Positions 4,800 to 64,000 of a stretch of 64,000 nt of DNA are shown one piece after another. Origin of the DNA: Christensenellaceae bacterium (GTDB lineage Bacteria > Bacillota > Clostridia > Christensenellales > UBA1242); contig JAISKJ010000003.1 in NCBI GenBank assembly GCA_031260975.1, positions 436,065 through 500,064 of the forward strand, given 5' to 3'. The notes beneath the pieces are model-generated. The model was not told where the DNA came from. It saw nothing but the letters and a program-made list of their open reading frames with translations, and ran no database searches. The position numbers and the translations under genes are program-made. Numbering within the stretch: the first letter of the stretch is position 1; each line of letters begins with the position of its first letter.

Positions 4800-4817
4800 T
4801 TGCATAATACTATGCAA
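4800..4817. repeat. palindromic repeat copy TTGCATAATACTATGCAA (perfect)
   Basis: 7-4-7 inverted repeat, identical to copies at 23025, 32782 and 32815; followed by ACTTTTTGTCGAAT flank shared with the 58685 locus. Confidence 0.9.
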
Positions 4818-13726: not shown

Positions 13727-15826
13727 ATGAAACATATGAATGCAGACAAAAAGGGTACATCCTTTGAAACTTCTATCGGCGGCAAAAAGGTAACAGTTCT
13801 CACCGGAAAGTATGCCGAGCAGTCAAACGGTTCGTGCATGATCAGCTGCGGTGAAACTGTTTTGCTGGCCAACGTTTGTATGGCGAACAAACCGCGCGAC
13901 GGCATAGACTTTTTCCCGCTGAGCGTGGACTATGAAGAAAAAATGTATGCCGTTGGCAAAATCCCCGGAGGGTTTAAAAAGCGTGAAGGGCGGGCCAGCG
14001 ACAAGGCAATATTGACCTCAAGGCTTTGTGACAGGCCGCTGAGACCTTTATTTCCAAAGGGGTTTTATAATGATGTTACAATTGTGATAACTGCGCTTTC
14101 TGTAGACCCCGCTTATGCCCCCGAGCCGCTTGCTATGCTGGCCTCATCCGTTGCTCTTACCATCTCGGATATCCCGTTTATGGGGCCTACAGGTGCTGTT
14201 TCGGTAGGGCTTATTGACGGTAAGTATATTGCCAACCCGACTTCTGAGCAGCGTGAAAAAAGTGTTATGCATGTATATGTCAGCGGAACCAAGGAAGCCA
14301 TTTTGATGGTGGAGGCGGCTGCTAATGAAGTCAGCGAAAAAGAAATGCTGGGCGCAATTATGTTTGCTCACGAAGAAATTAAGAATCTGGTTGACTTTCA
14401 GCAAAAAATTCAAAAGAAGGTCGGAGTTAAGAAAGCAACCGATTATCCGATAATTTTGCCGGCAAGTGAAGTTTTTGATGCGGTGAGAGATTATGCCGAC
14501 AAAAGGCTTGATAAAGCTCTTGACAATTTTGAACGTGAAGAAAGACAGAAAAAGCAGAGTGAAGTTGAAGAGGACGTTAAAGAGCACTTTAAAGATAAGT
14601 TTGACGAGCGTTCACTTGATGAAGTGCTTTATAAAATAGTCAAAAGCAAGGTGCGTGAAAAAATATTGTCAAAGGGCGTTCGTCCGGATGGGCGTAAGTC
14701 CACTGAAATCAGACCCATTTGGTGTGACGTTGGGATGCTTCCAAGAGTTCACGGAAGTGCTGTGTTCACCCGAGGTCAGACTCAGGTTTTAACCGCGCTT
14801 ACTCTTGGCATGATGAACGAAGTTCAGCGGCTTGAAGGGCTTGACGATGAAGAAGAAAAAAGATATGTTCACCATTATAACATGCCTGCTTATGCCACGG
14901 GAGAGGCAAGATCGCTTAAGCTTCCGGGAAGGCGTGAGATTGGTCATGGGGCTTTGGCTGAGCGTGCACTTGAACCGGTAATACCCAGCGAAGAAGAATT
15001 CCCATACGCATTGCGTTTGGTGAGTGAAGTTCTCAGCTCAAACGGCTCATCATCAATGGCCAGCACCTGCGGATCTACGCTTGCGCTTCTGGATGCAGGC
15101 GTGCCTATCAAATCGCCTGTAGCGGGCATTGCGATGGGGCTGATAAAAGATCCTAAAACAAATAAAGTGGCGATTTTGAGCGATATACAGGGCTTAGAGG
15201 ACTTTTTGGGCGACATGGACTTCAAAGTTACGGGCACAACAAAGGGTATTACGGCTATTCAGATGGATATCAAAATTGCCGGAATTGACGAAAAGATTTT
15301 GCAGACTGCGCTTGAACAGGCAAGAGTAGGCAGAATTGAAATTCTGGGTGAGATGCTCAAGGTCATAAAAGTGCCAAACAAGAACCTGAACAAATATGCA
15401 CCCAAGATTATTACTTTCAACATTGACCCTGATAAAATCAGAGATGTTATCGGCAGCGGCGGAAAGGTTATTAACAAGATTATTGAAGAGACGGGCGTTA
15501 AGATAAACATTGAAGACGACGGAAAGGTGGATATCGCCAGCAGCGATGAAGTGCAGCTTAAGCGGGCTAAGGAGATAGTCATGGGCATCGTTGAGGATTT
15601 GGAAGTCGGCAAGGAATATGATGGCAAGGTTATGCGTATTATGCAGTTTGGTGCATTCGTTGAAGTTTTACCTACCAAAGAAGGAATGATACATATTTCC
15701 AAGCTCAGCGAAGAACATGTTGCCAAAGTAACAGATGTTGTAAACATTGGTGACAAGGTGAGAGTAAAGGCTATTAAGGTTGACGAAAAAGGCAGAGTAG
15801 ATTTTAGGCTCGTAAAAAAACTTTAA
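13727..15826 (+). CDS. pnp: polyribonucleotide nucleotidyltransferase (PNPase)
   Basis: 699 aa; two RNase PH domains, KH and S1 (GKVMRIMQFGAFVE); rpsO-pnp synteny. Confidence 0.97.
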   Translation: MKHMNADKKGTSFETSIGGKKVTVLTGKYAEQSNGSCMISCGETVLLANVCMANKPRDGIDFFPLSVDYEEKMYAVGKIPGGFKKREGRASDKAILTSRLCDRPLRPLFPKGFYNDVTIVITALSVDPAYAPEPLAMLASSVALTISDIPFMGPTGAVSVGLIDGKYIANPTSEQREKSVMHVYVSGTKEAILMVEAAANEVSEKEMLGAIMFAHEEIKNLVDFQQKIQKKVGVKKATDYPIILPASEVFDAVRDYADKRLDKALDNFEREERQKKQSEVEEDVKEHFKDKFDERSLDEVLYKIVKSKVREKILSKGVRPDGRKSTEIRPIWCDVGMLPRVHGSAVFTRGQTQVLTALTLGMMNEVQRLEGLDDEEEKRYVHHYNMPAYATGEARSLKLPGRREIGHGALAERALEPVIPSEEEFPYALRLVSEVLSSNGSSSMASTCGSTLALLDAGVPIKSPVAGIAMGLIKDPKTNKVAILSDIQGLEDFLGDMDFKVTGTTKGITAIQMDIKIAGIDEKILQTALEQARVGRIEILGEMLKVIKVPNKNLNKYAPKIITFNIDPDKIRDVIGSGGKVINKIIEETGVKINIEDDGKVDIASSDEVQLKRAKEIVMGIVEDLEVGKEYDGKVMRIMQFGAFVEVLPTKEGMIHISKLSEEHVAKVTDVVNIGDKVRVKAIKVDEKGRVDFRLVKKL

Positions 15827-15835
15827 ATTAATGTC

Positions 15836-15910
15836 AAGTGAGTATATGTATCTCTAGGCTTCGGCATCTTTGATGCCTGCAGAAGCGTTCAGAGATATAT
15901 ATACTCACTT
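15836..15910 (+). terminator. 75-nt extended hairpin after pnp; core is member A of a two-copy repeat
   Basis: 20-bp outer stem AAGTGAGTATATGTATCTCT/AGAGATATATATACTCACTT, inner GCTTC/GAAGC and GGCATC-TTT-GATGCC. Confidence 0.65.
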
Positions 15911-16038
15911 TTCAATAATATAGTTTTTTGTTCATCCTGCAGTAAACTGCTGTTTGGGAAGAAAGAAGGCAAAAAAGAAGAGCAATGTACCCCCTCTTTA
16001 TCAAGCATTTCTTTTTGCGGCCTTGCATATAAATTATC

Positions 16039-21699: not shown

Positions 21700-23010
21700 T
21701 TGACTGAAGAAAAACTAAACAAAACAGTTGGATTTGTGTCGCTTGGGTGTGACAAAAACAGGGTGGATACCGAAAGCATAATAACCACTCTTTATGCTAA
21801 TGGTTTTAAAACAACAGGAAACATAAATGATGCTCAGATAATAATAATAAACACCTGTGCTTTTTTAAAGTCTGCTCGTGATGAGGCTCTTGCCACTATG
21901 CTTGAAATGCTGGATTATAAAAAGACAAGTGCCGAAAAAATAATCGTGGCAGGCTGTCTTTGTCAAATGGATGATAAGCTCAAAGAAAAGTATCCTGAGA
22001 TTGACGCTTTTATTACGCCCAAGGATTATGGCGATATTGCAAAGATAATATACGGCCTTTATGGAAAGCCTTATAAAAACTCCAACGGTGTTCCGGATTA
22101 TCGCAAAATTACAACGCCCGGGCATTTTGCATATCTTAAGATTGCCGAAGGCTGTGACAATTCCTGTAGCTATTGCACAATTCCAAAAATTAAAGGACCC
22201 TATGTCAGCGAACCTATTGAAAGTCTTGTAAAAACGGCGACGATACTTGCTGAGCAGGGAGTGAAGGAGCTCATTTTGGTGGCGCAGGATACCACAAGGT
22301 ATGGGCTTGACTTATATAAAAAACAGACTATTGCTGAGCTTTTAAAAAAGCTTAGTGAAATTAATGGTATTGAATGGATACGCTTGCATTATTGTTATCC
22401 TGAGATGCTGACGCCGGCAATAATAAACGAAATTGCGACTAACCCCAAGGTTGTAAAGTATCTGGATATTCCGTTTCAGCATGTAAGCACAAAGGTACTT
22501 AAGTCCATGAACAGAGCAGGCAACGAGCAATCTGTAAAATTGATTGTTGAAATGCTGCGCTCTAAAATTCCGGAGATAGTGCTCAGGTCCACTTTTATTG
22601 TAGGCTTTCCGGGGGAAACTAATGAGGACTTTAAACTTCTTTTGAAGTTTTTGAAGGAATATAAATTGGATGCCGTCGGCTTCTTTGCATATTCAAATGA
22701 AGAGGGAACTCCATCTTTTGAATTTGATGGGCAACTTAGTCAAAAAGAAAAGCAAAAGAGGCTGGAGGCCGCTCAGAAGATTCAAAGCAAAATTGCCTTT
22801 GAGCTAAATCAAAAGTTTATAGGCGCCACCCAAAAGGTGTTGTGCGACGGATTTGATCAGGCGAATGGCCTATATTATGGGCGTAACTATGGTAGCTCAC
22901 CGGACGTTGATTTTGTTGTGTATATAAATGGGAAATGCAGTATAGGTGATTTTGTATCAGTAAAAATTACTGATGCAACAGACGAGTATTTGATAGGGGA
23001 AATTGCATAG
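21700..23010 (+). CDS. rimO: ribosomal protein S12 methylthiotransferase RimO
   Basis: 436 aa; UPF0004 N-domain, radical-SAM CDNSCSYC, TRAM C-domain; TTG start. Confidence 0.9.
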   Translation: MTEEKLNKTVGFVSLGCDKNRVDTESIITTLYANGFKTTGNINDAQIIIINTCAFLKSARDEALATMLEMLDYKKTSAEKIIVAGCLCQMDDKLKEKYPEIDAFITPKDYGDIAKIIYGLYGKPYKNSNGVPDYRKITTPGHFAYLKIAEGCDNSCSYCTIPKIKGPYVSEPIESLVKTATILAEQGVKELILVAQDTTRYGLDLYKKQTIAELLKKLSEINGIEWIRLHYCYPEMLTPAIINEIATNPKVVKYLDIPFQHVSTKVLKSMNRAGNEQSVKLIVEMLRSKIPEIVLRSTFIVGFPGETNEDFKLLLKFLKEYKLDAVGFFAYSNEEGTPSFEFDGQLSQKEKQKRLEAAQKIQSKIAFELNQKFIGATQKVLCDGFDQANGLYYGRNYGSSPDVDFVVYINGKCSIGDFVSVKITDATDEYLIGEIA

Positions 23011-23042
23011 TATTATGCAATAGTTTGCATAATACTATGCAA
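23003..23042. repeat. two perfect palindromic repeat copies in opposite orientation (TTGCATAGTATTATGCAA tagt TTGCATAATACTATGCAA)
   Basis: 23003-23020 and 23025-23042; first copy contains the rimO stop codon. Confidence 0.92.
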
Positions 23043-27687: not shown

Positions 27688-27696
27688 TTGTATACT

Positions 27697-29010
27697 ATGG
27701 AAAAATGTTACCACATACACACCTACGGCTGCCAGATGAATGTTCACGAATCCGAGAAGCTGGCGGGCGTACTTAATAAATTGGGATATACTGAGACGCC
27801 TGATGAGAAACAGGCGTCTGTTATAGTTTTTAACACTTGCTGCATTAGAGAGAGTGCCGAGCAGCACGTATACGGCAATATTGGAGCGTTGAAGCAGCAT
27901 AAAAAACAAAACCCAGAGCTTATTATTGCGGTTTGTGGCTGTATGAGTCAACAAAAAGCAACTGCCGATAACATAAAGGCAAAGTATCCTTTTGTAAACA
28001 TAGTTTTTGGAACGCATAACATTCATATGTTTGAAGAATATCTCAAAGAGGCTGAGAAAGAAAAGCATGTGTTTGCTTTGTGGGAAAAAGAACAAGAGAT
28101 TGTTGAAAACACATCGGTATACAGAACCAGCGACAACAATGCGTGGGTTAACATAACTTATGGTTGCAACAACTTTTGCACTTATTGCATTGTTCCGTTT
28201 GTGCGAGGGAGAGAACGTAGCCGTAAAGCGGCCGATATCATAAACGAAGTCAAGGGATTGATAGGAAAGTATAAAACCATAACGCTTCTTGGGCAAAACG
28301 TAAATTCATATGGAAAAGACTTTGGTGATGGCACAGATTTTGCGGGGCTGCTTGAGGATTTAGCTAAGCTCGAGGGAGATTTCAGAATAAAGTTTTTGAC
28401 TTCGCACCCAAAAGATTTGAGCCAAAAAGTTATTAATGTGATTGCAAAAAACAATAAAATGAGTAAAACAATTCATTTGCCTGTGCAGTCTGGCAGCAAC
28501 AAGATTTTGAAGCTTATGAACCGAAGTTACACCAGAGAGCACTATATTTCATTGATTGACAGCATAAAAAAGGCTATGCCTGATGCTGTGATTACGACTG
28601 ATATTATAGTTGGATTTCCAGGGGAAACCGATAGCGATTTTGAAGAAACTATGGATTTGTTAAGGTATTGTAACTTTGCCGGAATTTTTGCTTTTATGTA
28701 TTCAAAAAGACGTGGTACACCTGCTGAAATAATGGATGGACAGGTTTCGATTGAAACAAAGCGAAAGCGTGTGAATGCCGCTCTTGACCTTCAGCGCAAA
28801 ATTAGCGCTGAGGTTATGCAGAGCTTTTTGGGTAAAACCTTAGAGGTTTTGACAGAAATGTTTAACGGTAAGGTTGTGGGACGAACGGAATTCGGAAAGC
28901 TTGTTGACCTTGATAAAGAGGCCGAACAAGGCAGTTTTTATGAGGTAGAAATTACTAAGATACTCAGCAAGAAGTTTGCAGGCAAGATTTTGAACAAAAG
29001 GGTATTGTAA
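27697..29010 (+). CDS. miaB: tRNA-i6A37 methylthiotransferase MiaB
   Basis: MEKCYHIHTYGCQMN N-terminus, radical-SAM CNNFCTYC, TRAM domain. Confidence 0.92.
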   Translation: MEKCYHIHTYGCQMNVHESEKLAGVLNKLGYTETPDEKQASVIVFNTCCIRESAEQHVYGNIGALKQHKKQNPELIIAVCGCMSQQKATADNIKAKYPFVNIVFGTHNIHMFEEYLKEAEKEKHVFALWEKEQEIVENTSVYRTSDNNAWVNITYGCNNFCTYCIVPFVRGRERSRKAADIINEVKGLIGKYKTITLLGQNVNSYGKDFGDGTDFAGLLEDLAKLEGDFRIKFLTSHPKDLSQKVINVIAKNNKMSKTIHLPVQSGSNKILKLMNRSYTREHYISLIDSIKKAMPDAVITTDIIVGFPGETDSDFEETMDLLRYCNFAGIFAFMYSKRRGTPAEIMDGQVSIETKRKRVNAALDLQRKISAEVMQSFLGKTLEVLTEMFNGKVVGRTEFGKLVDLDKEAEQGSFYEVEITKILSKKFAGKILNKRVL

Positions 29011-29021: not shown

Positions 29022-29113
29022 GGGCATTTTGTCACAAAAAGCAGCAGGCTTTTTGTGACGGCACAAACACAGTTTGTGCCGTGGGCGCCCAAATATGGGC
29101 GCGCAAAATGCCC
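29022..29113 (+). other. structured intergenic element E1: three hairpins closed by a 10-bp outer stem
   Basis: Outer GGGCATTTTG/CAAAATGCCC (29022-31/29104-13); H1 29032-58 (11 bp), H2 29059-81 (10 bp), H3 29085-102 (7 bp). Confidence 0.7.
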
Positions 29114-29134
29114 ATACCTAAAAGGAGAAATGAT

Positions 29135-31714
29135 ATGGCACTTTCACCAATGATGCAACAGTATATGGAGATAAAACAAAACTATAAGGATTGCTTGGTA
29201 TTTTGTAGGCTCGGAGATTTTTATGAGCTGTTTTTTGACGATGCTTTGATAGCCTCAAAAGAGTTGGAGCTGACTCTCACGGGGCGAAACTGCGGCCTTG
29301 AAGAAAAGGCTCCCATGTGCGGTGTTCCTTATCACGCTGCCGAAGGGTATATAGCCAAACTTATTGAAAAGGGCCATAAAGTAGCAATTCTTGAGCAGCT
29401 CAGCGAGCCCGCTCCAGGCAGGCTTGTTGACAGACAGGTGGTAAGGGTGATTACTGCAGGCACGGTGACCGATGCCGGCATGCTTGATGACAAAAAGAAT
29501 AATTATATTGCGAGTATATATTTAGGTGACAAGGGCGCGGGAATTGCTTATGCCGATGTTGCAACGGGTGAATTTTGCGTAAATTCCTATCAGGAAGAAT
29601 TTTTGACAAACCTCAATGACACTCTTACGCGCATAAGACCTGCTGAAATAATATGCTCAAAACGGGTGCTTGAACAAATTGCCGAGATTCCTTGCGTGAA
29701 GGCTAACATAATGCCTCGGTTTGAAGAATATCCCGAAGTTTTTTTTGACTACAAAAACGCAACCGAAATAATAAAGCGCCAGCTTAAGATTGCTACGCTC
29801 ACAGGTTTTGATTTTGCCAAGCTTGAATATGCAATTTGCGCCAGCGGAGCGCTTATAAATTATATATTAGAAACTCAAAAACGAGACCTTAATCACATAA
29901 ACCGCATTATATGCGAAAAGAATGATTCTTATCTATATCTCGATCCGGCTACAACTCGCAATCTTGAACTTGTTGAAACAATCAGGGAGCAAAAGAAAAA
30001 GGGCTCATTGCTGGGGCTTTTGGATAATACCAAAACCAATATGGGAGCAAGGCTTCTGCGCACATGGATACTTCAGCCTTTGCGTGACCCAGAGCAAATC
30101 AATCGCAGACTTGAGGCTGAGGAAGAACTTATTGGCGAGCATATTTTGTTTAATGACATAACGGCGAGTCTTTCAAAAGTTTCGGATATCAGCAGGATTG
30201 CTGGCAAAATATCCTTTAATACCGTTATGCCGCGCGATTTGATTTTGCTCAAAAATTCGATTAAAGAAGCAATGGAGCTTAGTGTACTTGTAAAAAATCT
30301 TAAGAGTGAGACTTTAAATGGGCTTATTTCGGATTTTTATAAACTTAAAGAAGTTTTTGAAGAGATTGAAAAGGCTATTGATGAGGAACCACCTTTGGTG
30401 CTTACCAACGGAGGTTATATAAAGAAGGGATTTAGCGGTGACCTTGACAATCTTCGTGCCACAACAACTGACGCTCAGCAATGGCTTGCGGCACTTGAGG
30501 CAACCGAGCGTGAGCAAACGGGTATCAAAAACATTAAGGTTGGATATACGCGTGTGTTTGGATATTACTTAGAGGTTCCCAAGTCTCAGCAGGATCAGGT
30601 GCCGTATAGATATCAACGCAAGCAAACGGTGGTAGGAGCTGAGCGATATGTCACCGAAGAACTCAAACAGATTGAAGAAAAAATAATGAACAGCGAAGAG
30701 CTTTCACTCAAGCTTGAACAGCAGTTATACAGCGAGCTTAAAGAGTTTTTAAAAACCGCTGTAACAGCTCTTCAAAAAACGGCAGGAGACATTGCTATGC
30801 TTGACTGTATATGTGCACTTGCTGAAACTGCAAAGACACGCGGCTTTATAAAGCCCGTTATAAACGGCGGCATAAAGGCAATCAATATAACAGATGGCAG
30901 GCATCCCGTGGTTGAAGCGTTGCTTAAAGATGAGCAGTTTGTTCCTAATGACTGCTATCTTGACTGTGATAAAAACAGAACTATGATAATTACCGGTCCT
31001 AATATGGCCGGCAAAAGTACCTATATGAGGCAGGTGGCACTCATTGTTCTGCTTGCTCACATGGGCAGTTTTGTTCCGGCAAAATCTGCTGAGATTAGCC
31101 TTACTGACCGAATTTTTACTAGGATTGGCGCCAGCGATGATCTGGCATATGGGCAGAGTACGTTTATGGTGGAGATGGTTGAGGTTTCAAACATTTTAAA
31201 CAATGCAACCAAAAACAGTCTGCTTGTTTTGGATGAGGTTGGCCGAGGTACTTCCACTTTTGACGGGCTCAGTATTGCGTGGGCGGTAATTGAACATGTA
31301 ACCAAAAACATAAAAGCCAAAACACTTTTTGCCACGCACTATCACGAGCTTACTGAACTTGAAGGGCAGCTGGAGGGAACGAATAATTACCGCGTGGCTA
31401 TTCAGGAGTTTAACAACAGCATAATTTTCCTTCACAAAATTGTAAGAGGAGGCACCAGCCGAAGCTTTGGAATTGAAGTGGCGTCCCTTGCCGGCATAGG
31501 TTCAAATATAATAGGGCGGGCTAAGCAGATTTTGCATACCCTTGAGCAAAATGACCTTGAGGGTAGCAGTAAGCTTGTAACACTTGAAAAATCCAAAGAA
31601 CCAAAGGGGGAACTAACAGGCAAGCTGAAAAACCTTGATATGAATACTGTTACTCCTTTGGTGGCGTTTGACATTTTAAAGGAACTAAGCGATAAAGCTA
31701 AAAGGAGTGACTAA
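29135..31714 (+). CDS. mutS: DNA mismatch repair protein MutS
   Basis: MALSPMMQQYMEIK start with AAGGAG SD; GPNMAGKST Walker A; ORF-track start 29081 lies inside element E1. Confidence 0.97.
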   Translation: MALSPMMQQYMEIKQNYKDCLVFCRLGDFYELFFDDALIASKELELTLTGRNCGLEEKAPMCGVPYHAAEGYIAKLIEKGHKVAILEQLSEPAPGRLVDRQVVRVITAGTVTDAGMLDDKKNNYIASIYLGDKGAGIAYADVATGEFCVNSYQEEFLTNLNDTLTRIRPAEIICSKRVLEQIAEIPCVKANIMPRFEEYPEVFFDYKNATEIIKRQLKIATLTGFDFAKLEYAICASGALINYILETQKRDLNHINRIICEKNDSYLYLDPATTRNLELVETIREQKKKGSLLGLLDNTKTNMGARLLRTWILQPLRDPEQINRRLEAEEELIGEHILFNDITASLSKVSDISRIAGKISFNTVMPRDLILLKNSIKEAMELSVLVKNLKSETLNGLISDFYKLKEVFEEIEKAIDEEPPLVLTNGGYIKKGFSGDLDNLRATTTDAQQWLAALEATEREQTGIKNIKVGYTRVFGYYLEVPKSQQDQVPYRYQRKQTVVGAERYVTEELKQIEEKIMNSEELSLKLEQQLYSELKEFLKTAVTALQKTAGDIAMLDCICALAETAKTRGFIKPVINGGIKAINITDGRHPVVEALLKDEQFVPNDCYLDCDKNRTMIITGPNMAGKSTYMRQVALIVLLAHMGSFVPAKSAEISLTDRIFTRIGASDDLAYGQSTFMVEMVEVSNILNNATKNSLLVLDEVGRGTSTFDGLSIAWAVIEHVTKNIKAKTLFATHYHELTELEGQLEGTNNYRVAIQEFNNSIIFLHKIVRGGTSRSFGIEVASLAGIGSNIIGRAKQILHTLEQNDLEGSSKLVTLEKSKEPKGELTGKLKNLDMNTVTPLVAFDILKELSDKAKRSD

Positions 31715-33558
31715 TGAAAATAAACATATTAGACAGTAGCATATACAATCGAATTGCAGCGGGTGAAGTTGTTGAACGTCCTCATTCGATTGTCAAGGAG
31801 CTTGTTGAAAATAGCGTTGATTCGGGGGCTGACAGTATAATAATAGAAGTTGTGGGCGGCGGTATGCGCTCTGTGAAAGTGACTGACAACGGCAGTGGAA
31901 TTGACTTTGATGACCTGACGGCCGCATTTTTGCCGCATGCAACCAGCAAAATCAAAACAACCGACGACCTGAATTCAATCGCTACGCTGGGTTTTAGAGG
32001 TGAAGCACTTGCCAGCATCGGCTCGGTAAGTGAAATTATGTTGAGCTCCAAAACTAAAGGAGCCACTACCGGCGGTGAGGTTGAAGTAAGAGGCGGAACC
32101 ATTTCTAAACCCCATCCTAAGGGGTGCCCCGAAGGGACGCATGTTGTGGTGAATAACTTATTTTTTAATACTCCGGCCCGAGCCAAGTTTTTAAAGTCAG
32201 CCAAAACTGAAGAAAGTTATATCACCAATCTGGTTGAGCGCACAATCTTAGCCCATCCGAATATCAGTTTTAAGTATATTGTCGACGGCAAAATTGTATA
32301 TCAGACAACGGGCAAAGGCCTTGAAGAGGCGATTTATGTGATTTATGGCAAGGAAACAACGGGAAACTTAATCAGTGTAGAATATAAAAATTCTAGCCTA
32401 ACCATATCCGGTTTTGTGGGCCGACCGACTTATACTAAGCCTAATCGTACTTATCAGACGCTGGTCATAAACGGCAGGTATGTTGTTGACAGTCTTGTTT
32501 CAACGTCGGTTTTCAATGCTTTTTCGAACTATATGATGAAGGGCAGGTTCCCGTTTTTTGTTCTTTTTATAAATATGCCCTATGAGGATGTTGATGTAAA
32601 TGTTCATCCAAACAAGCTGGCTGTAAGATTTGTAAACTCCAATGGTGTGTATGTTGCGGTAAGCAATGCTGTCAGCGGCGCGTTGCTTAACGCCAACAAT
32701 ATTGTTGACGCTGTGACAACTGCTGAAAACGAGCCGATTGTGCCGATGCCAAAGGTGACGGGCAGGAGTTTTGGGGAGAGTTTGCATAATACTATGCAAA
32801 CCTTGGATGAAAAATTGCATAATACTATGCAAACAATTGACACAAAGCCCGCAGTTTCAAGTCCGATACTGCCAAATATTCCTATTACGCCTGTGGCAAC
32901 GCTAAAGGATGATGGTGGAATATATTATCAGACACTTCAGAATTATGTCAAGGCAGCTGCTCAGCCTGAAGTTTCACTTGCCGAAGGAGTTGAGGATTTT
33001 AAGATAATCGGCACAGTATTTACCACCTACATAATTGTGGAGCACAAAGGTGAAGCATATTTTATTGACCAGCACGCAGCGCACGAGCGGCTTTTGTTTG
33101 ACAAATTTTCGGCCGAATTTGAAAAGAAACAGGTTAATATCCAACAGCTGTTTGTGCCGTATGTGTTGCGGATTAATAGTGTTGAGGATGTATTTTTAAA
33201 GGAACACCTTAATGATTTTGGTGAGCTGGGCTTTGAGGTTTCGGAGTTTGGCAATCTTTCATACAAGGTTTCAAGTGTGCCGCTTAGCCTCAGTCAAATA
33301 GACCTGAGTGCATATTTTGATGACAGTCTTAAAAACCTTAACAAGCTTGGCAGCAGCGTTGAAGTCAGGCACTTTTTGGCCACAAAGGCATGCAAGGCAG
33401 CGGTCAAAGCCGGGCATGATTTAAATGGCACTGAAATTGCAACGCTGCTTAAAGAAATCAGCAAATCGGGAACAACCTTGCTTTGTCCGCACGGTAGGCC
33501 TGTTTGCGTAAGGCTTAAAAAAACCGACGTTGACAAATGGTTTAAGAGGATTGTATGA
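31714..33558 (+). CDS. mutL: DNA mismatch repair protein MutL
   Basis: 614 aa; GHKL ATPase motifs (ELVENSVDSGA, DNGSGI), C-terminal dimerisation domain (FIDQHAAHER). Confidence 0.95.
   Translation: MKINILDSSIYNRIAAGEVVERPHSIVKELVENSVDSGADSIIIEVVGGGMRSVKVTDNGSGIDFDDLTAAFLPHATSKIKTTDDLNSIATLGFRGEALASIGSVSEIMLSSKTKGATTGGEVEVRGGTISKPHPKGCPEGTHVVVNNLFFNTPARAKFLKSAKTEESYITNLVERTILAHPNISFKYIVDGKIVYQTTGKGLEEAIYVIYGKETTGNLISVEYKNSSLTISGFVGRPTYTKPNRTYQTLVINGRYVVDSLVSTSVFNAFSNYMMKGRFPFFVLFINMPYEDVDVNVHPNKLAVRFVNSNGVYVAVSNAVSGALLNANNIVDAVTTAENEPIVPMPKVTGRSFGESLHNTMQTLDEKLHNTMQTIDTKPAVSSPILPNIPITPVATLKDDGGIYYQTLQNYVKAAAQPEVSLAEGVEDFKIIGTVFTTYIIVEHKGEAYFIDQHAAHERLLFDKFSAEFEKKQVNIQQLFVPYVLRINSVEDVFLKEHLNDFGELGFEVSEFGNLSYKVSSVPLSLSQIDLSAYFDDSLKNLNKLGSSVEVRHFLATKACKAAVKAGHDLNGTEIATLLKEISKSGTTLLCPHGRPVCVRLKKTDVDKWFKRIV
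32782..32832. repeat. two perfect direct copies of the palindromic repeat, in frame inside mutL
   Basis: TTGCATAATACTATGCAAAC at 32782-32801 and 32815-32834, period 33 nt, translated LHNTMQT twice. Confidence 0.92.
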
Positions 33559-36324: not shown

Positions 36325-37362
36325 CTAATTATCCCGCAGTTTCACCTTATTTGCAGCGGATTTTCGGATATCCTCACTTATGGCGGCGTAATGTTTTCGT
36401 GTGGTGTTTACGTCTTTATGCCCCAAAACATCGGCCACCATATAAATATCGCCTGTTTCACGATATAAATTTGTGCCGTATGTACTTCTTAGCTTGTGGG
36501 GTGTAATTTTTTTGAGAGGAGTGGATACCGAACTATATTTTTTTACTAATTTTTCAACAGCTCTAACGCCGATTCTTTCGTTTCGAAGCGATAGAAATAG
36601 TGCATTGTCGTCGGTTTTTTTGTTAAGCTTGCGTTTTTCAAAATATTCTCTTAAGGCATCAGCCACTTCATCCGAAAAGTATAATATTGCCTGATTTCCG
36701 CCTTTTCGCATAATTCTGAAACTATTTGCATTAAAGTCGATATCATCCAAATTTAAACCCACAAGCTCGCTTATACGAATACCTGTTCCTAAAAAAAGCG
36801 TTAAAATTGCTAAATCTCGTGTTCTGGTATGCTTATTAAATTCAAGTTGCATATGGCTGAATTTGATAGGGGCTTCGGTTTGGTCCAAAAGCTTTACCAC
36901 CTCGTCAACCTCAAGGCGGATAATTTCTTTAGTGTGAATTTTTGGCATTTCTATTTTTGTTGCAACATTGGCGTCCAGCTTATCTTTGTTAAAAAAATAT
37001 TTAAAAAGACTGCGCACTGCTGCCAACTTGCGTGCCTTTGCCTTGTCGTTATTCTGAATTTTTTTGCCGTTATGCTCATAAAAACTCAGATATGATAAAA
37101 ACTTTTCAATATTTGAAGAGGTGACTGCATTTAGGTGCTTAAGTTCGAGCTCGGTAATCCGAAAGTTGTCGAATTTGGGAAGTTTTTTTACTAAAAAGTC
37201 AAAAAAAATGCCCAGATCCCTCGCATAGTTTATTCGAGTAAGAGGGGTGGTCCGGCTTTCAATACCTATGAAAAAGTCTTCGCAAAATTCGGGAAGCTCA
37301 CCCATGATGTTGTCTAGAGCTTGCGTATTTTTTTCGTTGCGTTCGACAAAATAATTACTCAC
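36325..37362 (-). CDS. tyrosine site-specific recombinase, XerC/XerD-like
   Basis: 345 aa; SAM-like N-domain, catalytic R..HKLR..LGHKDVNTTRKHY; GTG start; co-oriented 10 nt upstream of lexA. Confidence 0.85.
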   Translation of the reverse strand: MSNYFVERNEKNTQALDNIMGELPEFCEDFFIGIESRTTPLTRINYARDLGIFFDFLVKKLPKFDNFRITELELKHLNAVTSSNIEKFLSYLSFYEHNGKKIQNNDKAKARKLAAVRSLFKYFFNKDKLDANVATKIEMPKIHTKEIIRLEVDEVVKLLDQTEAPIKFSHMQLEFNKHTRTRDLAILTLFLGTGIRISELVGLNLDDIDFNANSFRIMRKGGNQAILYFSDEVADALREYFEKRKLNKKTDDNALFLSLRNERIGVRAVEKLVKKYSSVSTPLKKITPHKLRSTYGTNLYRETGDIYMVADVLGHKDVNTTRKHYAAISEDIRKSAANKVKLRDN

Positions 37363-37578: not shown

Positions 37579-37596
37579 TTGCATAATGCTGTGCAA
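37579..37596. repeat. palindromic repeat copy, 2 mismatches (TTGCATAATGCTGTGCAA)
   Basis: Starts about 6 nt after the serS -10 box, at the predicted transcript 5' end. Confidence 0.8.
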
Positions 37597-37611: not shown

Positions 37612-38901
37612 ATGATAGACATAGAGCTTATAAGAAACAATCCTGAAATGGTCAAAAAAAATATAAAAAAGAAGTTTCAGGACAAAAAACTGCCGCTTGT
37701 TGATGAGGTGAAAACTCTCGACATAAGAAGCCGCAGTCTTAAGCAGGAAATTGACAGTCTCAGAAGCAGCCGCAACAAGTTGAGCCAAGAAATTGGCGAG
37801 TTTATGAAGCAAAAGAAAAGCAGTCAGGCTGAAACGCTGAAAAAACAGGTTGTGGATATAAACACTAAGGTTGCTGAGCTTGAGACGGAATATAATGAGG
37901 TAGGCACAAAAATCAACCAAATTATGATGACAATTCCAAATATCATAGCTGATGATGTGCCGGTTGGCCGCAGCGACGCCGAAAATGTTGAGCGTGAAGT
38001 GTTTGGCAAGCCAAAGAAGCCGGATTTTGAAATTCCATATCATGCCGATATTATGGAGAATTTGTGTGGGCTTGACAAAGATAGTGCCGGAAAAACCTCA
38101 GGTAATGGATTTTATTTTTTGATGGGTGATGTGGCAAGGCTTCATTCAGCCATTTTGTCGTATGCCCGTGATTTTATGATAGACAAGGGTTTTAATTATT
38201 GTATTCCTCCGTTTTTGATACACGCAGACGTGGTCAGAGGCGTTATGAGCTTTGCTGAAATGGACGCTATGATGTATAAAATTGAAGGCGAGGACCTTTA
38301 TATGATAGGCACCAGCGAGCACTCAATGATAGGAAAATATAAAGATGCCGTTTTAAAGGAAGAAGATCTTCCGATTTGTCTTACGTCATATTCGCCGTGC
38401 TTCCGTAAAGAAGTTGGTGCACACGGCATTGAGGAACGCGGCATATACAGAGTTCATCAGTTTGAAAAGCAGGAAATGATAGTAATTTGCAAAAAAGAAG
38501 AAGCTAGAATGTGGTATGATAAAATGTCGCATTTTGCGGTTGATTTTTTTAAAAGTCTTGAACTGCCGGTGCGTATTTTAGAATCATGTAGCGGGGATTT
38601 GGCCGATTTAAAGGTTAAGGGTTGCGATATTGAGGGATTTAGTCTGAGGCAGCAAAAGTATTTGGAGCTTGGAAGCTGTTCGGATATGGGAGACGCTCAG
38701 GCACGAAGGCTGGGTATGCGATATAAGACGGCAAGTGGTACAGTTTTTGCGAACACTTTAAACAACACCGTTGTGGCTACACCCAGGGTGTTGACTGTGT
38801 TTTTTGAAAATCATCTGCAAAAAGATGGTTCGGTAAATATACCAAAAGCTCTTCAGCCTTATATGGGAGGCAAAACTAAGCTGGAACCAAAAAAGAAATG
38901 A
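37612..38901 (+). CDS. serS: seryl-tRNA synthetase
   Basis: MIDIELIRNNPE start with GGAGG SD; coiled-coil N-domain, class II motifs. Confidence 0.96.
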   Translation: MIDIELIRNNPEMVKKNIKKKFQDKKLPLVDEVKTLDIRSRSLKQEIDSLRSSRNKLSQEIGEFMKQKKSSQAETLKKQVVDINTKVAELETEYNEVGTKINQIMMTIPNIIADDVPVGRSDAENVEREVFGKPKKPDFEIPYHADIMENLCGLDKDSAGKTSGNGFYFLMGDVARLHSAILSYARDFMIDKGFNYCIPPFLIHADVVRGVMSFAEMDAMMYKIEGEDLYMIGTSEHSMIGKYKDAVLKEEDLPICLTSYSPCFRKEVGAHGIEERGIYRVHQFEKQEMIVICKKEEARMWYDKMSHFAVDFFKSLELPVRILESCSGDLADLKVKGCDIEGFSLRQQKYLELGSCSDMGDAQARRLGMRYKTASGTVFANTLNNTVVATPRVLTVFFENHLQKDGSVNIPKALQPYMGGKTKLEPKKK

Positions 38902-38908
38902 AAGAGGT

Positions 38909-38992
38909 CGGGCTTTGGCGCAAACAGGAGTTTGCGCGGCGCAACTACTTGTTGCGCCGGCGTGAGCCTTCTGGCTCACGCCGCAAAGCCCG
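38909..38992 (+). other. structured intergenic element E2: three hairpins closed by a 9-bp outer stem
   Basis: Outer CGGGCTTTG/CAAAGCCCG (38909-17/38984-92); H1 38918-37 (8 bp), H2 38938-58 (8 bp), H3 38959-82 (10 bp). Confidence 0.7.
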
Positions 38993-39036
38993 CTTCATAA
39001 AATTACTCGTGGGACGCCCCCGAAAAGGAGCCGAAA

Positions 39037-39939
39037 TTGAAAAAACAAAGAATTGAACAATTTGCAACAGAAGTTAATGGCGATACTGCCAAAGAAAATT
39101 ATAAAATTGCACTTAATGTAATCATAGAGGCGCTTGAGGGGCTAACCGGTAAGGTGTCTACACTGACGCCCGAGGAAGTGCGTGTTTTTCCGATGGGTGA
39201 GCTCACCAACGGCACCTTTGTTGACACAAACGATGAAATTGAAATAGCTCTTGTCACCAGCAATCCTCAAATGGCGTTTACAAATTCCGCCTACATAAGA
39301 CTTATGTCTGAGATTAAAAAACAGAAAGACCGCGACGCAGTCAGTTCAGACAACACTACACATCAAATCATACAGCTTTTGTTTGATGAATTTATTAAAT
39401 TGTTTTCGGCTGACACTACAATCATTATAACTCAACAAGGAATAAAAATATTATCTAACAAGGAGCTTGGCTTTAAAATTATGTTACGCCTCGGCACGTA
39501 TAATGCCTATGACACAAATTTTGTGCTGTCACTGTGGAATCCTGTGCGAAAAACAACTGAAAATCTTGATATTTTCGGCTATGCTGAAGCTATGAAAAAG
39601 AAAGACGATGATACAGACGGCAACTTTAACAAAATTGTAAGAATTTTTAAAAACTTCCGTAAAGCTGTTGTGGCCAATAAATGGTTCGGCAGTTCATTTG
39701 CAAACAAATATCTGGTTGAGATGGTAGTATACAACATACCAAACTCATTGCTTAAAGGCAGTGATGTATATAAGGTTTATGTCAAAAGTATAAATTATTT
39801 ACTGAATTGTCCGCTGAGTAGTTTTAAATCTTTTAACGGCGGGCAGCTTAGTAGTTTTCCGATAGCAGGCGCAGATCAATATCACATAAAAACTTTCCTG
39901 AGCAGCTGCAGCAGATTGCTGGCGCTCAAGGATGTATAA
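39037..39939 (+). CDS. hypothetical protein, possibly a divergent Pol-beta-fold nucleotidyltransferase (CD-NTase/SMODS-like layout)
   Basis: 300 aa, TTG start with AAAAGGAG SD; MGELTNGTFVDTNDEIEIALV resembles hG[GS]x9-13DhDh with GE and EIE substitutions; later FNKIVRIFKNFRK...YLVEMVVYNIP helices. Confidence 0.35.
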   Translation: MKKQRIEQFATEVNGDTAKENYKIALNVIIEALEGLTGKVSTLTPEEVRVFPMGELTNGTFVDTNDEIEIALVTSNPQMAFTNSAYIRLMSEIKKQKDRDAVSSDNTTHQIIQLLFDEFIKLFSADTTIIITQQGIKILSNKELGFKIMLRLGTYNAYDTNFVLSLWNPVRKTTENLDIFGYAEAMKKKDDDTDGNFNKIVRIFKNFRKAVVANKWFGSSFANKYLVEMVVYNIPNSLLKGSDVYKVYVKSINYLLNCPLSSFKSFNGGQLSSFPIAGADQYHIKTFLSSCSRLLALKDV

Positions 39940-40121: not shown

Positions 40122-40186
40122 TATGTAGGCCCCATTTTGGCCCTTCTTTTAACCTCTTTTCTAAAAAAACAACCTTTTTTAACAAA

Positions 40187-40235
40187 AATATTCGACAAAA
40201 AAGCGGTGTCTTTCACCGCCCTTTTGTCGAATATT
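40187..40235. other. nested long hairpin (14-bp outer stem AATATTCGACAAAA, inner GCGGTG-TCTTT-CACCGC)
   Basis: Read directly; T-run follows on the minus strand, so possibly the terminator of the DUF45 gene. Confidence 0.65.
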
Positions 40236-40321
40236 TAACGTAACATTCTTTTTGGCAGGCAAAGTTCAGCCCCGTTTCAATCGTGTGGACACTACGGGCT
40301 TTTAAGAAAATGAAATCTCAG

Positions 40322-41035
40322 TCACCTATAAATCCCAAGCAGAAAGTTGTTGCGTTTGAGTGTGAGACGTGCCTGCTTCCAGCCTGGCATGAGGCGCTCA
40401 AGCACTGCATAAAACTTTTGCGAATGGTTCATCTCATATGTGTGGCTAAGCTCATGCAGAATTACATAATCAATGACATTGTGCGGCAGCATTACAAGCC
40501 GCCAATTTAATTTGATATTCTTATTTGTATCACAACTACCCCATTTTGCTTTAAAGTCGCCGATTTTCAGGCTTTTATAACCTATCCCGTGCGTCTTCCC
40601 AAGCGTCTCAAGCCGTTTGGTAAGTATTTCCGCCCCTAGTGCCCTTTGCCATTTCAATAAGTGTTTTATGTATGAGCCTTCTATATAATATTTATTTGGC
40701 ACGATTACCTGATTTTTTTCAATTGTTATTGTCTTTGTGTCGCCGGCGGTGATGTCATAAAGCGTTCCGCACACTGAAATTTGTTTAAAGTTGATTATGG
40801 TTTGATGGTCAATATTCACCTGTGCTATCTGCTGCATCTTTTTTTCAATCCATTTGGCTTTTTGATTTATGATTTCACCAAGCCGTTGAGTATTCATTTT
40901 TATGGGTGCAAAAACCACCAGCTTTCCGTGGGTGTCTATGGTTATCTTAACGCTTCTGCGACGCTCACGCAGAATGTCGGCGATATCTATTAAGTTTTGC
41001 ATAGTATTATTCAAACTTTGCATAGTATTATTCAA
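40322..41035 (-). CDS. YgjP-like/DUF45 family metal-dependent hydrolase (HExxH)
   Basis: HELSHTYEMNHSQKFY zinc motif, RRSVKITIDTHGKLVVFAP N-region; start ambiguous (TTG 41035, ATG 41023 or ATG 41002), all inside repeat copies. Confidence 0.8.
   Translation of the reverse strand: MNNTMQSLNNTMQNLIDIADILRERRRSVKITIDTHGKLVVFAPIKMNTQRLGEIINQKAKWIEKKMQQIAQVNIDHQTIINFKQISVCGTLYDITAGDTKTITIEKNQVIVPNKYYIEGSYIKHLLKWQRALGAEILTKRLETLGKTHGIGYKSLKIGDFKAKWGSCDTNKNIKLNWRLVMLPHNVIDYVILHELSHTYEMNHSQKFYAVLERLMPGWKQARLTLKRNNFLLGIYR
40997..41035. repeat. two direct palindromic repeat copies, 1 mismatch each (TTGCATAGTATTATTCAA), period 21 nt
   Basis: 40997-41014 and 41018-41035; encode NNTMQ twice on the minus strand. 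Confidence 0.85.
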
Positions 41036-48426: not shown

Positions 48427-48449
48427 AAAAGAGATTAAATCTCTTTTTT
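48425..48449. terminator. bidirectional terminator between leuS and rnhA
   Basis: AAAAAAGAGAT-TAA-ATCTCTTTTTT symmetrical hairpin. Confidence 0.8.
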
Positions 48450-48453
48450 GTTT

Positions 48454-48912
48454 TTATGTCAGTTTTGTCAAATCGCTTTTAAATTTCTCACTTTCTTTTA
48501 CGGCGATTTTATCGCACTTGTTGTTATACTCATTGTCAGCGTGGCCCTTAACTTTCACAAATCTTACAGTGTGTTTCCTTGTTAAATTTAAAAGTTCTTC
48601 CCACAAATCCTGATTGAGCACGGGCTTTTTGTTTGCGCTTCTCCATCCGTTTAAAACCCAGCCGGATATCCAATCTTGCAAAAACGCATTGCACACATAA
48701 GCTGAGTCTGTATATAATTTTACCGCACAAGGTTCTTTCAGCGCGCTCAACCCTTCAATGGCTCCCTTTAGCTCCATGCGGTTGTTGGTGGTGGCACGCT
48801 CCCCTCCTGACAAAACCTTTTCTTTTTTTCCATATAACAAAATTGCACACCAGCCACCGGGGCCGGGGTTTCCGCTACACGCTCCGTCTGTATAAATTTC
48901 TACTTGCTTCAT
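48454..48912 (-). CDS. rnhA: ribonuclease HI
   Basis: 152 aa; IYTDGACSGNPGPGGW, NNRMEL, HADNEYNNKCD motifs. Confidence 0.93.
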   Translation of the reverse strand: MKQVEIYTDGACSGNPGPGGWCAILLYGKKEKVLSGGERATTNNRMELKGAIEGLSALKEPCAVKLYTDSAYVCNAFLQDWISGWVLNGWRSANKKPVLNQDLWEELLNLTRKHTVRFVKVKGHADNEYNNKCDKIAVKESEKFKSDLTKLT

Positions 48913-49104
48913 GTTCTAATTATAATCCAATAAGACAAGCATTGTCAATCAAACTTGTTTGTAAAGTCATGCATTTTGAAAGTTGGGCAGAATCAGGAAA
49001 AATATAATTATAATCATGAAGCTTATTTTTTGTCATTTGAGCTGTCAACACAATCAACTTGCAAATTTCATAAACTACTTTAATTAAAATGAGGAGAAAA
49101 AATT

Positions 49105-49935
49105 ATGAAATTTTGTGACAGTCACAGTGATTGCCTGACTTTTTATAGCATTGAAAATGCCGCTCAATATCTTAAAAGTTATAAAACAAAAAACATAAAA
49201 ACACTTTGCTGTGCCGTGTTTACAAGTGAGCTGAAAGAAGACCCGCTTTTATATATTGAAGCCGCGGCAGCCCAAATAAAGGCGTTAAATTCAGGACATA
49301 AATTTATTATTTACGGTGAAGACTGCAGTTTTTTGACAAAAAGCAACCTAAAAACTTTGATAGATTTGCGTCCTGTTTCATGCGGGCTCACATGGCATTT
49401 TGACAATAGTCTTGCCGGAGGCGACGAGGGACACGGAGATATCACTCCGTTTGGAACTGAAGTCATAAAAACTCTGGAGCAAAATAACATTTTTATAGAT
49501 ACTGCTCATCTCAACCGTAAATCTTTTTATCAGGTTTGCGGGCTTTCAAAAAAACCTATTTACAACTCTCACTGCGGCGTATATAAGTTTTGCCGCAACA
49601 AACGGAACTTGACCGACCAACAGATTAAATATATTTTTGATACAAACGGTTTTATGGGTATTTATCTTGTTTCATATTTGTTGAGCAAAAAGCATTGTTC
49701 CGTTAGGACTGTTGCTGAGCATTTTGATTATGTAATAAGAAAATTCGGATATAAAAATGTAGGCTTAGGCACGGATTTTTTTGGCACAAAAAACCTGCCC
49801 GCACGTGCGACGGGCTATGATGATTTGCATTTGATTTTAAAAGAACTGAAAGACATGGGACATTCGCGCAAAATAATAAAACATATTGCTCATAAAAACT
49901 ATACTGATTTTTTAAAACGCAGCGGATTATTGTGA
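49105..49935 (+). CDS. membrane dipeptidase (M19 family)-like protein
   Basis: 276 aa; CDSHSDCL, DTAHLN, GLGTDFFG motifs resembling the renal dipeptidase family. Confidence 0.7.
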   Translation: MKFCDSHSDCLTFYSIENAAQYLKSYKTKNIKTLCCAVFTSELKEDPLLYIEAAAAQIKALNSGHKFIIYGEDCSFLTKSNLKTLIDLRPVSCGLTWHFDNSLAGGDEGHGDITPFGTEVIKTLEQNNIFIDTAHLNRKSFYQVCGLSKKPIYNSHCGVYKFCRNKRNLTDQQIKYIFDTNGFMGIYLVSYLLSKKHCSVRTVAEHFDYVIRKFGYKNVGLGTDFFGTKNLPARATGYDDLHLILKELKDMGHSRKIIKHIAHKNYTDFLKRSGLL

Positions 49936-56065: not shown

Positions 56066-56139
56066 TGGCAGGGAGTGTAGGACTTGAACCCACCTCATAG
56101 GTTTTGGAGACCTAGGCACAACCTCTATACCAACTCCCT
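56066..56139 (-). tRNA. trnW: tRNA-Trp (anticodon CCA)
   Basis: 74 nt; acceptor AGGGAGT/ACTCCCT, anticodon stem TAGGT/ACCTA with loop CTCCAAA, T-arm GTGGG-TTCAAGT-CCTAC, encoded CCA end. Confidence 0.9.
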
Positions 56140-58696: not shown

Positions 58697-58746
58697 TTGC
58701 ATAATCTTTGCATAGTATTATGCAAAAGTTTGCACAGTACTATGCA
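58697..58746. repeat. palindromic repeat cluster: half copy plus one perfect plus one 2-mismatch copy
   Basis: TTGCATAAT 58697-705; TTGCATAGTATTATGCAA 58708-25; TTGCACAGTACTATGCAA 58729-46; preceded by ATTCGACAAAAA 58685-96. Confidence 0.9.
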
Positions 58747-58748
58747 AT

Positions 58749-63439: not shown

Positions 63440-64000
63440 TTATCTGAATTGCTTTAAAAACCTTATGTCGTTTTCATACATAAGCCGGCTGTAGGGTATT
63501 TTATAATGATTTTTAACCACTCTGTCAAAACCAAATCCAAATGCAAAGCCGCTGTATTTTTTGCTGTCAATGCCGTTCATTTCCAAAACTTTTGGATGAA
63601 TCATGCCGGCACCAAACAACTCAAAGCCTCCGGTATTTTTGCAGGCAGAACACCCTTTTCCCATGCAAACGGAACATACAATATCGCCCTCAACGCTGGG
63701 TTCGGTAAAAGGAAAGTATGAACCGCGGAGTTTTATTTTCACATCTTCACCCATTATTTGACGTGCTACTGCGTCAAGTGTGGCTTTAAGGTCGACCATA
63801 CTGACTTTTTCGTCAATATATATGCCCTCAAATTGAAAAAAGCTGGGTGTATGTGTGGCGTCGTATTCATCTCTTCTGAAGCATCTGCCCGGACAAAAAG
63901 CCTTGAATGGCAGTTTTATATTCTGCATTGCTCTGGGCTGCGCGTTTGAAGTCTGAGTGCGAAGAAGTATATTTTCAGTTATATAAAAGGTGTCCTGCAT
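63440..64000 (-). CDS. pheS: phenylalanyl-tRNA synthetase alpha subunit, C-terminal part (5' end outside window)
   Basis: Class II core motifs (FRRDEYDATH, GFAFGFGFDR); runs to window edge. Confidence 0.94.
   Translation of the reverse strand: MQDTFYITENILLRTQTSNAQPRAMQNIKLPFKAFCPGRCFRRDEYDATHTPSFFQFEGIYIDEKVSMVDLKATLDAVARQIMGEDVKIKLRGSYFPFTEPSVEGDIVCSVCMGKGCSACKNTGGFELFGAGMIHPKVLEMNGIDSKKYSGFAFGFGFDRVVKNHYKIPYSRLMYENDIRFLKQFR

Follow-up and report, generated by a model that had tools for sequence, protein, structure and literature searches.

In the 64-kb stretch of Christensenellaceae genome analysed here (64,000 nucleotides, hereafter the window), the spacers between miaB and mutS and downstream of serS each carry a compact nested palindrome, E1 and E2, in which a perfect outer stem encloses three perfect hairpins and so closes a four-way junction. 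We propose that both are copies of a lineage-restricted family of dispersed, 82-92-bp nested-palindrome insertions, akin to repetitive extragenic palindromes (REPs), bacterial interspersed mosaic elements (BIMEs) and miniature transposable elements with inverted repeats (MITEs), a reading to which we assign a probability of about 0.6. Four copies, E1 to E4, are known, in two sister species of an uncultured gut genus of the Christensenellaceae, and all of them are 82-92 bp long.

The architecture of E1 and E2 is real and far beyond chance, because none of 200 dinucleotide shuffles folded as well as either element, because the two are the top local folds when the whole window is folded in sliding windows, and because they are its only matches to a structural detector for adjacent perfect hairpins within a perfect outer stem. 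As RNA, their minimum free energies (MFEs) are -58.8 kcal/mol for E1 and -65.1 kcal/mol for E2 (z = -8.9 and -9.1), and as single-stranded DNA (ssDNA) either strand of both folds with z-scores of -9.8 to -10.8. Outside the lineage, the detector found nothing in ~2.1 Mb (1.3 Mb from related Clostridia, the other 0.8 Mb from unrelated contigs of metagenomes and viruses), and the related-Clostridia set, made up of 80 loci from GTDB representatives, yielded nothing by perfect-stem detector, energy-residual scan or covariance model. A first-pass annotation of this DNA, made from the sequence alone, had described E1 as an outer stem around three hairpins, and both sequence and fold bear this out, with GGGCATTTTG pairing with CAAAATGCCC. 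The stem lengths of 11, 10 and 7 bp given there hold as an architecture and not as exact values, which vary with the assignment of the junction bases: the stem of the first hairpin (H1) has 10 bp, or 11-12 bp with junction bases included, and the junction bases at 29031-29033 pair in two ways, with 29058, the base past H1, or with 29103, the first of the 3' closing arm. In E2, base 38918 pairs either with 38937 or with 38983, and the junction of both elements can thus isomerise by one pair, in the manner of a limited branch migration. The enrichment in GC noted for E1 is also present (53%, vs 41% for the window), and E2 reaches 65% against the same background.

Neither element belongs to a known RNA family, as had been surmised for E1. 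At gathering thresholds, the only match of Rfam 15 in the window is the tRNA-Trp gene at 56069-56139, which is also the only tRNA that ARAGORN calls there, E1 and E2 being passed over; permissive local Rfam scans gave no score above 20.5 bits where 39.8 bits are required, and no E-value better than 0.076. Comparison with annotated phages and plasmids returned only 20-30% partial chance matches (E = 0.3). What does exist for E1, as set out below, are homologues and two-sided changes in their stems.

Judged by their sequences, E1 to E4 are homologous copies of one dispersed family and not independent inventions, because a covariance model for which E1 and its four-helix structure were the sole input recovers the other three. 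The model scores E3 at 46.8 bits (E = 3e-8), E4, which had been held out, at 43.9 bits (E = 1.5e-7, filters off) and E2 at 36.6 bits (E = 6e-6), so that the earlier view of E2 as a relative of E1 stands; the next best match in the window has 13.6 bits (E = 0.83), and no other match at E <= 10 was found in 1.43 Mb of other Clostridia and lineage loci. Because the helices are too divergent for MAFFT to align in register, also from an N-padded alignment prepared by hand, a single-sequence model was used and complemented by a manual comparison helix by helix. E3, revealed by an energy-residual scan of all loci, lies in the sister species 7-8 nt past miaA (L083:6965-7048; MFE -53.0 kcal/mol, z = -8.05). 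E4, revealed by an energy scan of the extended source sequence, lies 543 nt past the window end in the source genome, between pheS and yunB, a YunB-family gene (L210:3759-3849, corresponding to ~64543-64633 on the minus strand; MFE -61.8 kcal/mol, z = -9.41). A covariance-model search, which had been put forward as a check on E1, thus does find further homologues in E3 and E4. The source genome was covered over ~74 kb (the window, ~6 kb to its left on L209 and ~4.4 kb to its right on L210) and holds three copies, compared with one in ~31 kb of the sister species, and mismatch-tolerant and filter-free searches found no decayed copies in ~110 kb of lineage DNA.

The termini also occur apart from the architecture. 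A scan for GGGCATTTTG-N50-80-GCAAAATGCC gave at least 120 matches in metagenome sequences and 2 in viral ones, and after folding, none of the matches listed had the architecture, those listed being plain long hairpins or chance matches; solo termini number 19 in the window, E1's own two ends included, which is close to the 9.6 +/- 3.5 expected by chance. The best chance carrier of the same termini scores 27.4 bits under the E1-only model. It is a plain 22-bp perfect hairpin with GGGCATTTTG...CAAAATGCCC ends on an unrelated metagenome contig of 60% GC (L172:34-78), and the identity of its termini with those of E1 is probably a coincidence.

The copies can be recognised as homologous, but their likeness is only ~60-70%. 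All four have a closing stem of 9-11 bp and three hairpins, with loops of 3-5 nt and linkers of 0-3 bases. In the closing stem, a junction-proximal TTTTG(C)...(G)CAAAA is kept (TTTG...CAAA in E2), while the outer 4-5 bp vary and are always paired (GGGCA/TGCCC, CGGGC/GCCCG, GCCCG/CGGGC); in E3 and E4, the position at which the E1 and E2 junctions isomerise belongs to the closing stem, as a C-G pair that is fixed. In every copy, H1 is of the A-run type (CACAAAAAGC, CACACAAA, GCCAAAAAAC and GCGCAAAC), alike position by position in E1, E3 and E4, the third hairpins (H3) of E1 and E4 have a common GCGCCC core with a two-sided change from A-T to T-A, and the second hairpins (H2) of E1 and E2 are identical at 7 of 8 aligned pairs. 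Template switching can make perfect hairpins de novo (PMC8794818), and copies as divergent as these might each have been invented locally by template-switch or fold-back events, being then neither homologous nor mobile. This we find quite improbable in view of the shared motif and the same order of three hairpins in every copy, the positional likeness of individual hairpins (H1 of E1, E3 and E4, H2 of E1 and E2, H3 of E1 and E4), and a one-copy model that finds the others at E-values of 1e-5 to 1e-8 and nothing else. The chance that the elements are artefacts of short-read metagenome assembly is close to negligible: the source metagenome-assembled genome and the Logan contig may share reads, and E3 is found on one contig only (L083), but the four loci differ in sequence and come from at least two independent samples (SRR14710919 and SRR29082275), their flanks are clean and in frame, and such artefacts make no nested perfect palindromes with a common motif.

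As far as the available relatives go, E1 and E2 are dispersed insertions and not a conserved RNA gene, because the element is found in one species only at every comparable site. In the sister species (82-87% protein identity; Logan runs SRR29082275, SRR29082281 and SRR29082291), the miaB-mutS spacer measures 24 nt and the spacer downstream of serS 55 nt, and both elements are missing; in alignments to it they stand out as clean indels of ~95 nt (E1 site) and ~80 nt (E2 site), with flanking coding sequence that aligns well. A syntenic outgroup (63% MiaB identity) likewise has spacers of ~16 nt between miaB and mutS and ~20 nt between serS and the next gene, without element. By parsimony, E1 and E2 were thus gained in the lineage of the window, as neither the sister nor the outgroup carries them. 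At the E3 site the situation is reversed, the spacer downstream of miaA in the window being empty and 11 nt long, so that all three comparable sites show the presence/absence polymorphism between orthologous positions that marks MITEs. The MiaB (MDR0850389.1), SerS and LeuRS (MDR0850402.1) proteins of the window are 100% identical to those of a metagenome-assembled genome labelled Christensenellaceae bacterium. Sampling of the lineage is sparse: beyond the sister species, a possible third species lies at 82% identity (ERZ27245261), and all other relatives are at or below 70%.

This distribution speaks against a functional RNA of conserved structure, such as a ribozyme, a riboswitch-like element or a scaffold for proteins, that would work in cis or as a small RNA and owe the upkeep of its four-way junction to selection at the transcript level. 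Such an RNA would account for a fold that is extremely stable and specific, for the sense orientation of all copies relative to the flanking genes and for the two-sidedness of the stem changes. We nevertheless hold it to be rather unlikely: the orthologous spacers of a sister as close as this one and of the outgroup lack the element, the gene contexts are unrelated (miaB/mutS, serS, miaA and yunB/pheS), no Rfam family matches, conserved loops and internal loops are absent, and the pairing itself, with essentially no G-U pairs, is as good in the antisense as in the sense.

Over the four elements, 145 of 146 base pairs are Watson-Crick, the exception being a single G-T at a junction, and all 16 helices are free of mismatches and bulges. 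Folding is as good for the antisense RNA and for either DNA strand as for the sense RNA, and the loops, none of them GNRA or UNCG, are not conserved between copies. Aligned stem differences between copies are two-sided without exception, as in the 7 of 32 pairs that differ between E1 and E4, two copies from the same genome. Functional RNAs usually hold several percent of G-U pairs, and compensatory change often passes through a G-U intermediate. The near-absence of such pairs and the equal folding of both strands point to an upkeep of the palindromes at the DNA level rather than to RNA-specific selection. The first-pass annotation had taken the differing stems as maintained by compensatory changes; it was right in that every difference is two-sided, but this is no evidence for a selected RNA structure, because the elements are lineage-specific insertions, their pairs are Watson-Crick in all but one case and both strands fold equally. 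By one event of template switching during replication, a quasi-palindrome changed on one side acquires the perfectly matching change on the other (PMC8794818, PMC7202029, PMC5941160), and it can both create and maintain perfect hairpins (PMC8794818). Homogenisation of the arms by this route probably keeps the stems perfect, to which the loss of copies unable to fold may add.

All four copies share the same orientation relative to their flanking genes. The polarity of the family is set by hairpin order, linkers and loops, and the sense strand outscores the antisense by 9.4 bits in E3, 11.4 bits in E4 and 2.5 bits in E2. E1 to E4 are extragenic, 7-56 nt past a stop codon and between co-directional genes. 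E1 to E3, which have no terminator tail and lie within apparent operons, are preceded at 7-11 nt by the stop codon and followed at 8-30 nt by the next ribosome-binding site. Thus, 11 nt separate the miaB stop codon (29008-29010) from the start of E1, and 21 nt its end from the mutS ATG at 29135, the Shine-Dalgarno (SD) sequence AAGGAG beginning 8 nt past the element. GC skew in the window goes from ~+0.13 to ~-0.1 at about 48000-50000 (sign change at ~48-49 kb), and the genes turn there from the plus to the minus strand, convergently. Because the change of sign in the skew coincides with this convergence of the genes, the window appears to span the replication terminus. On one replichore E1 and E2 occupy the plus strand, on the other E4 occupies the minus strand, so that polarity follows the directions of transcription and replication alike, the two being inseparable here. 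Strand-specific transposition through a single-stranded intermediate, as in IS200/IS605, would yield such a polarity, as would selection on the sense strand of a transcript, and with four copies the pattern is only suggestive.

Wholly Watson-Crick pairing, strands that both fold, four helices that meet with 0-3 unpaired linker bases as in a junction, and a polarity that flips with the replichore also fit a site acting at the DNA level, whose folded strand or cruciform would serve as a Holliday-junction-like substrate for a recombinase, a resolvase or a nucleoid protein. It might be an attachment or recombination site, or one that structures the chromosome as some REP/BIME clusters do. Clusters of REPs, which interact with nucleoid proteins, provide a precedent (PMC4550694). 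We consider such a site unlikely: no dedicated recombinase is encoded nearby, the sole tyrosine recombinase (36325-37362) is syntenic in the sister species and apparently so in the outgroup, both of which lack E2, and the sites are scattered and species-specific, in contrast to what a required chromosomal function would demand.

The position of the elements directly after stop codons might alternatively suggest unusual multi-hairpin intrinsic terminators or attenuators, and E4 is indeed followed by a T-rich tract, TCTTTCTCTCTTTTC, and then by promoter-like sequence before pheS. E4 may therefore double as a terminator. For the family as a whole, however, this explanation is most improbable, as E1, E2 and E3 have no T-tract and stand directly before the next ribosome-binding site in apparent operons, while ordinary hairpin-plus-T terminators occur elsewhere in the window (e.g., at 40186-40236). 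The absence of a U-tract had already been remarked upon for E1, and it is matched by the terminator scan, which calls neither E1 nor E2.

If E1 to E4 are dispersed insertions, as we propose, they would have spread as non-autonomous mobile DNA, moved in trans by an enzyme that is not encoded nearby. A mechanism that acts on single strands and recognises hairpins would fit better than the cut-and-paste mobilisation of a MITE that depends on terminal inverted repeats (TIRs), because the polarity is consistent and neither a clear conservation of the termini nor a clear target duplication is seen. Once inserted, the closing stem would fold the 90-nt insert into a compact junction, leaving ~30 nt between the stop codon before it and the ribosome-binding site after it. 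This compact fold probably explains why the miaB-mutS and miaA-downstream junctions, which measure 11-24 nt when empty, tolerate the element, since the closing stem would keep the stop codon and the next start close. Single stem-loops between cistrons determine how stable the individual segments of an mRNA are in Clostridia (PMC9045158, PMC10311766). In the present case, a transcribed junction of -55 to -65 kcal/mol should block both 3'-5' and 5'-3' exonucleases, and the flanking mRNA segments could be stabilised, as a side effect or mild benefit and not as the reason for the family's existence. Stabilisation of mRNA and service as a protein scaffold, both raised for E1 in the first-pass annotation, are putative roles.

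Several points weigh against the proposal of mobile insertions. The known copies number only four, drawn from ~110 kb of DNA of the lineage, so that copy number, orientation bias and target preference are poorly estimated, and a uniform polarity of four out of four has a probability of 0.125 by chance. No transposase, REP-associated tyrosine transposase (RAYT) or other mobilising gene was found in a Pfam scan of ten unannotated ORFs of the window, which contained housekeeping families only, and the genes that flank the elements are housekeeping genes as well, by their Pfam families. Copies differ from one another in their outermost 4-5 bp, an unusual trait for the ends of a transposon, and the three filled/empty comparisons reveal no consistent target-site duplication or target motif: candidate duplications (AAAC/ATAC at E1 and AGGAG at E3) differ in length and position, and the flanks of E2 are too diverged. 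The perfection of the stems could also be due to very recent insertion or to strong selection, and both co-transcription with the neighbouring genes and an effect on mRNA stability are matters that we infer.

A more far-reaching version of the proposal, which we regard as speculative and on balance unlikely, is that of a new class of mobile element, defined by its structure. The active form would be a single strand folded so as to resemble a Holliday junction, with four perfect helices and hardly any linker bases, and a junction- or hairpin-specific enzyme would recognise it by its shape and by the short motif TTTTGC/GCAAAA; insertion would be strand-specific and coupled to replication, from which a polarity that flips with the replichore would follow, and the element would perfect itself by template switching between its own parts. 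If this were true, the transposition substrate would be unlike TIR-, REP- or attC-type sites. Regardless of mechanism, we found no description in the literature searched of a closed, flawless four-way junction with drifting sequence, and genome-wide confirmation would give bacterial intergenic repeats a further, distinct architecture, in which the sequence drifts and the pairing is never broken. The family would also offer a test case for whether palindromes are perfected by template-switch homogenisation or by selection, and another for the tolerance of 90-nt insertions within tight housekeeping operons such as miaB-mutS-mutL-miaA. In practical terms, such elements cause false ORF calls and can pass for covarying functional RNAs in comparative scans.

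The coordinates of E1, E2 and their neighbours are collected in Table 1. Two spurious ORF calls are provoked by the elements. At E1, a mechanical ORF list starts mutS at a GTG at 29081, extending it over 29081-29134 and into the element; we reject this longer frame as an artefact. At E2, a public gene call on a Logan contig places a 52-aa ORF across the element (window 38898-39056; L086:11287-11445).

Table 1. Positions of the elements, their parts and adjacent genes in the window.
Feature	Position	Strand	Description
E1, complete element	29022..29113	+	92 nt; four-way junction of outer stem and three hairpins
E1, outer stem, 5' arm	29022..29032	+	GGGCATTTTG(T); junction-proximal TTTTG kept across the family, same arm in E3
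E1, hairpin H1	29033..29057	+	CACAAAAAGC / AGCAG / GCTTTTTGTG; A-run hairpin
E1, hairpin H2	29059..29081	+	CGGCACAAAC / ACA / GTTTGTGCCG; 10-11 bp
E1, hairpin H3	29085..29102	+	GCGCCCA / AATA / TGGGCGC; 7 bp
E1, outer stem, 3' arm	29103..29113	+	(G)CAAAATGCCC
miaB, upstream of E1	27688..29010	+	annotated 437-aa product MDR0850389.1
mutS, downstream of E1	29135..31714	+	true start ATG 29135; 859-aa gene call
E2, complete element	38909..38992	+	84 nt; outer stem CGGGCTTTG/CAAAGCCCG
E2, hairpins	H1 38918-38937, H2 38938-38958, H3 38959-38982	+	stems of 8, 8 and 10 bp
serS, upstream of E2	37612..38901	+	429-aa product
ORF downstream of E2	39037..39939	+	300 aa, without Pfam match; SD between E2 and start codon
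pheS, 3' part	63440..64000	-	E4 lies just upstream of pheS, outside the window

Some further features of this DNA are separate from the E elements. Third in stability among the local folds of the window is a long imperfect hairpin outside the E family (15814-15932), with arms of ~42 nt and 79% complementarity (-45 kcal/mol over a 100-nt window), which directly follows the stop codon of a 699-aa ORF (13727-15826). In the sister species, mutS and mutL, which abut in the window, are separated by 125 nt of AT-rich sequence (L082:10242-10366); we rejected this spacer as an E-element site, as it is unstructured (z = 0.03). For an 18-bp palindrome, TTGCATAnTAnTATGCAA, 10 occurrences, often paired in tandem, contrast with 0.13 expected by chance. 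Its sites in the window are 4800-4817, 23003-23042, 32782-32832, 37579-37596, 40997-41035 and 58708-58747, and those on a sister contig L082:1687-1730 and L082:11422-11455. They are located upstream of cinA-recA and of the pyrophosphatase gene, within mutL, just past the ORFs downstream of ruvC, and in two divergent regions, one separating serS from the integrase-lexA operon and the other a YgjP-like gene from the gene next to it; the cinA and mutL sites are kept in the sister species. The gene set, with recA and the lexA and ruv regions, suggests a non-canonical SOS/LexA-type operator of this lineage.

Among known systems, the REP/BIME category, proposed for E1 at the outset, is the best available, given the existence of E3 and E4 and the presence/absence differences between species, yet it does not hold in the strict sense. 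REPs and BIMEs carry an unpaired GTAG or CGTC at the end of the palindrome and are associated with RAYTs (PMC3733652), and we read neither tetranucleotide at or beside any helix end of E1 to E4, so that the elements, by this sequence definition, fall outside the tagged REPs. REPs also reach high copy numbers per genome, and the RAYT gene, which encodes a Y1 transposase, is flanked by the repeats. The resemblance is otherwise close, in that REPs, too, are short palindromes, extragenic and rich in GC, that mostly follow genes between co-directional or convergent ORFs, are in many cases plausibly transcribed and often species-specific, and are thought to be non-autonomous mobile DNA, and that adjacent REP units can fold into larger structures. 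In contrast, a REP is a single imperfect hairpin of 20-40 bp and a BIME a linear array of REPs in alternating orientation, whereas the E copies nest three distinct perfect hairpins within a closing stem of 9-11 bp, are far more divergent within one genome than typical REPs, and have no RAYT in sight.

Structured bacterial MITEs, among them BOX and RUP of pneumococci, the Correia elements of Neisseria and the enterobacterial ERIC, are non-coding insertions of ~100 bp with paired ends that are co-transcribed with neighbouring genes, form stable folds and can change the stability of mRNA; BOX has a modular plan, A-Bn-C, with A and C pairing. In BOX, RUP, Correia and ERIC, sequences and termini are well conserved, a target duplication is usual, and the folds are imperfect. 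E elements have ends that pair and vary (GGGCA, CGGGC and GCCCG as outermost 4-5 bp), a closing stem conserved in its junction-proximal part, TTTTG(C), no clear duplication and flawless helices. The attC sites of integrons are recognised as folded ssDNA with strand polarity, their structure being kept over their sequence, with conserved ends and a variable palindromic centre. Each is one imperfect hairpin with extrahelical bases and R''/L''-L'/R' boxes, and they occur in cassette arrays next to the integron integrase gene intI; E elements have a different architecture and lie isolated between housekeeping genes. The cloverleaf of a tRNA likewise combines a closing stem with three hairpins in ~85-90 nt, but the E stems are perfect and 7-12 bp long, without features of D, anticodon or T loops and without CCA.

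Mobile GC-rich clusters of organelles, such as those of yeast mitochondria, the double hairpins of Allomyces and the palindromic repeats of green algae (PMC7235400), are scattered intergenic multi-hairpin insertions in an AT-richer host genome that differ in presence between close relatives, as E elements do, but they belong to other sequence families and have no enclosing stem or four-way junction. Finally, the intercistronic stem-loops of Clostridia, which control operon stoichiometry (PMC9045158, PMC10311766), are, like E1 to E3, stable structures between cistrons, and they affect the termination, processing or stability of the transcript. Unlike the dispersed, homologous E family, they are single hairpins, fixed at particular operons and of demonstrated function; by analogy with them, a comparable action on the transcript is a likely RNA-level consequence of E1, E2 and E3.

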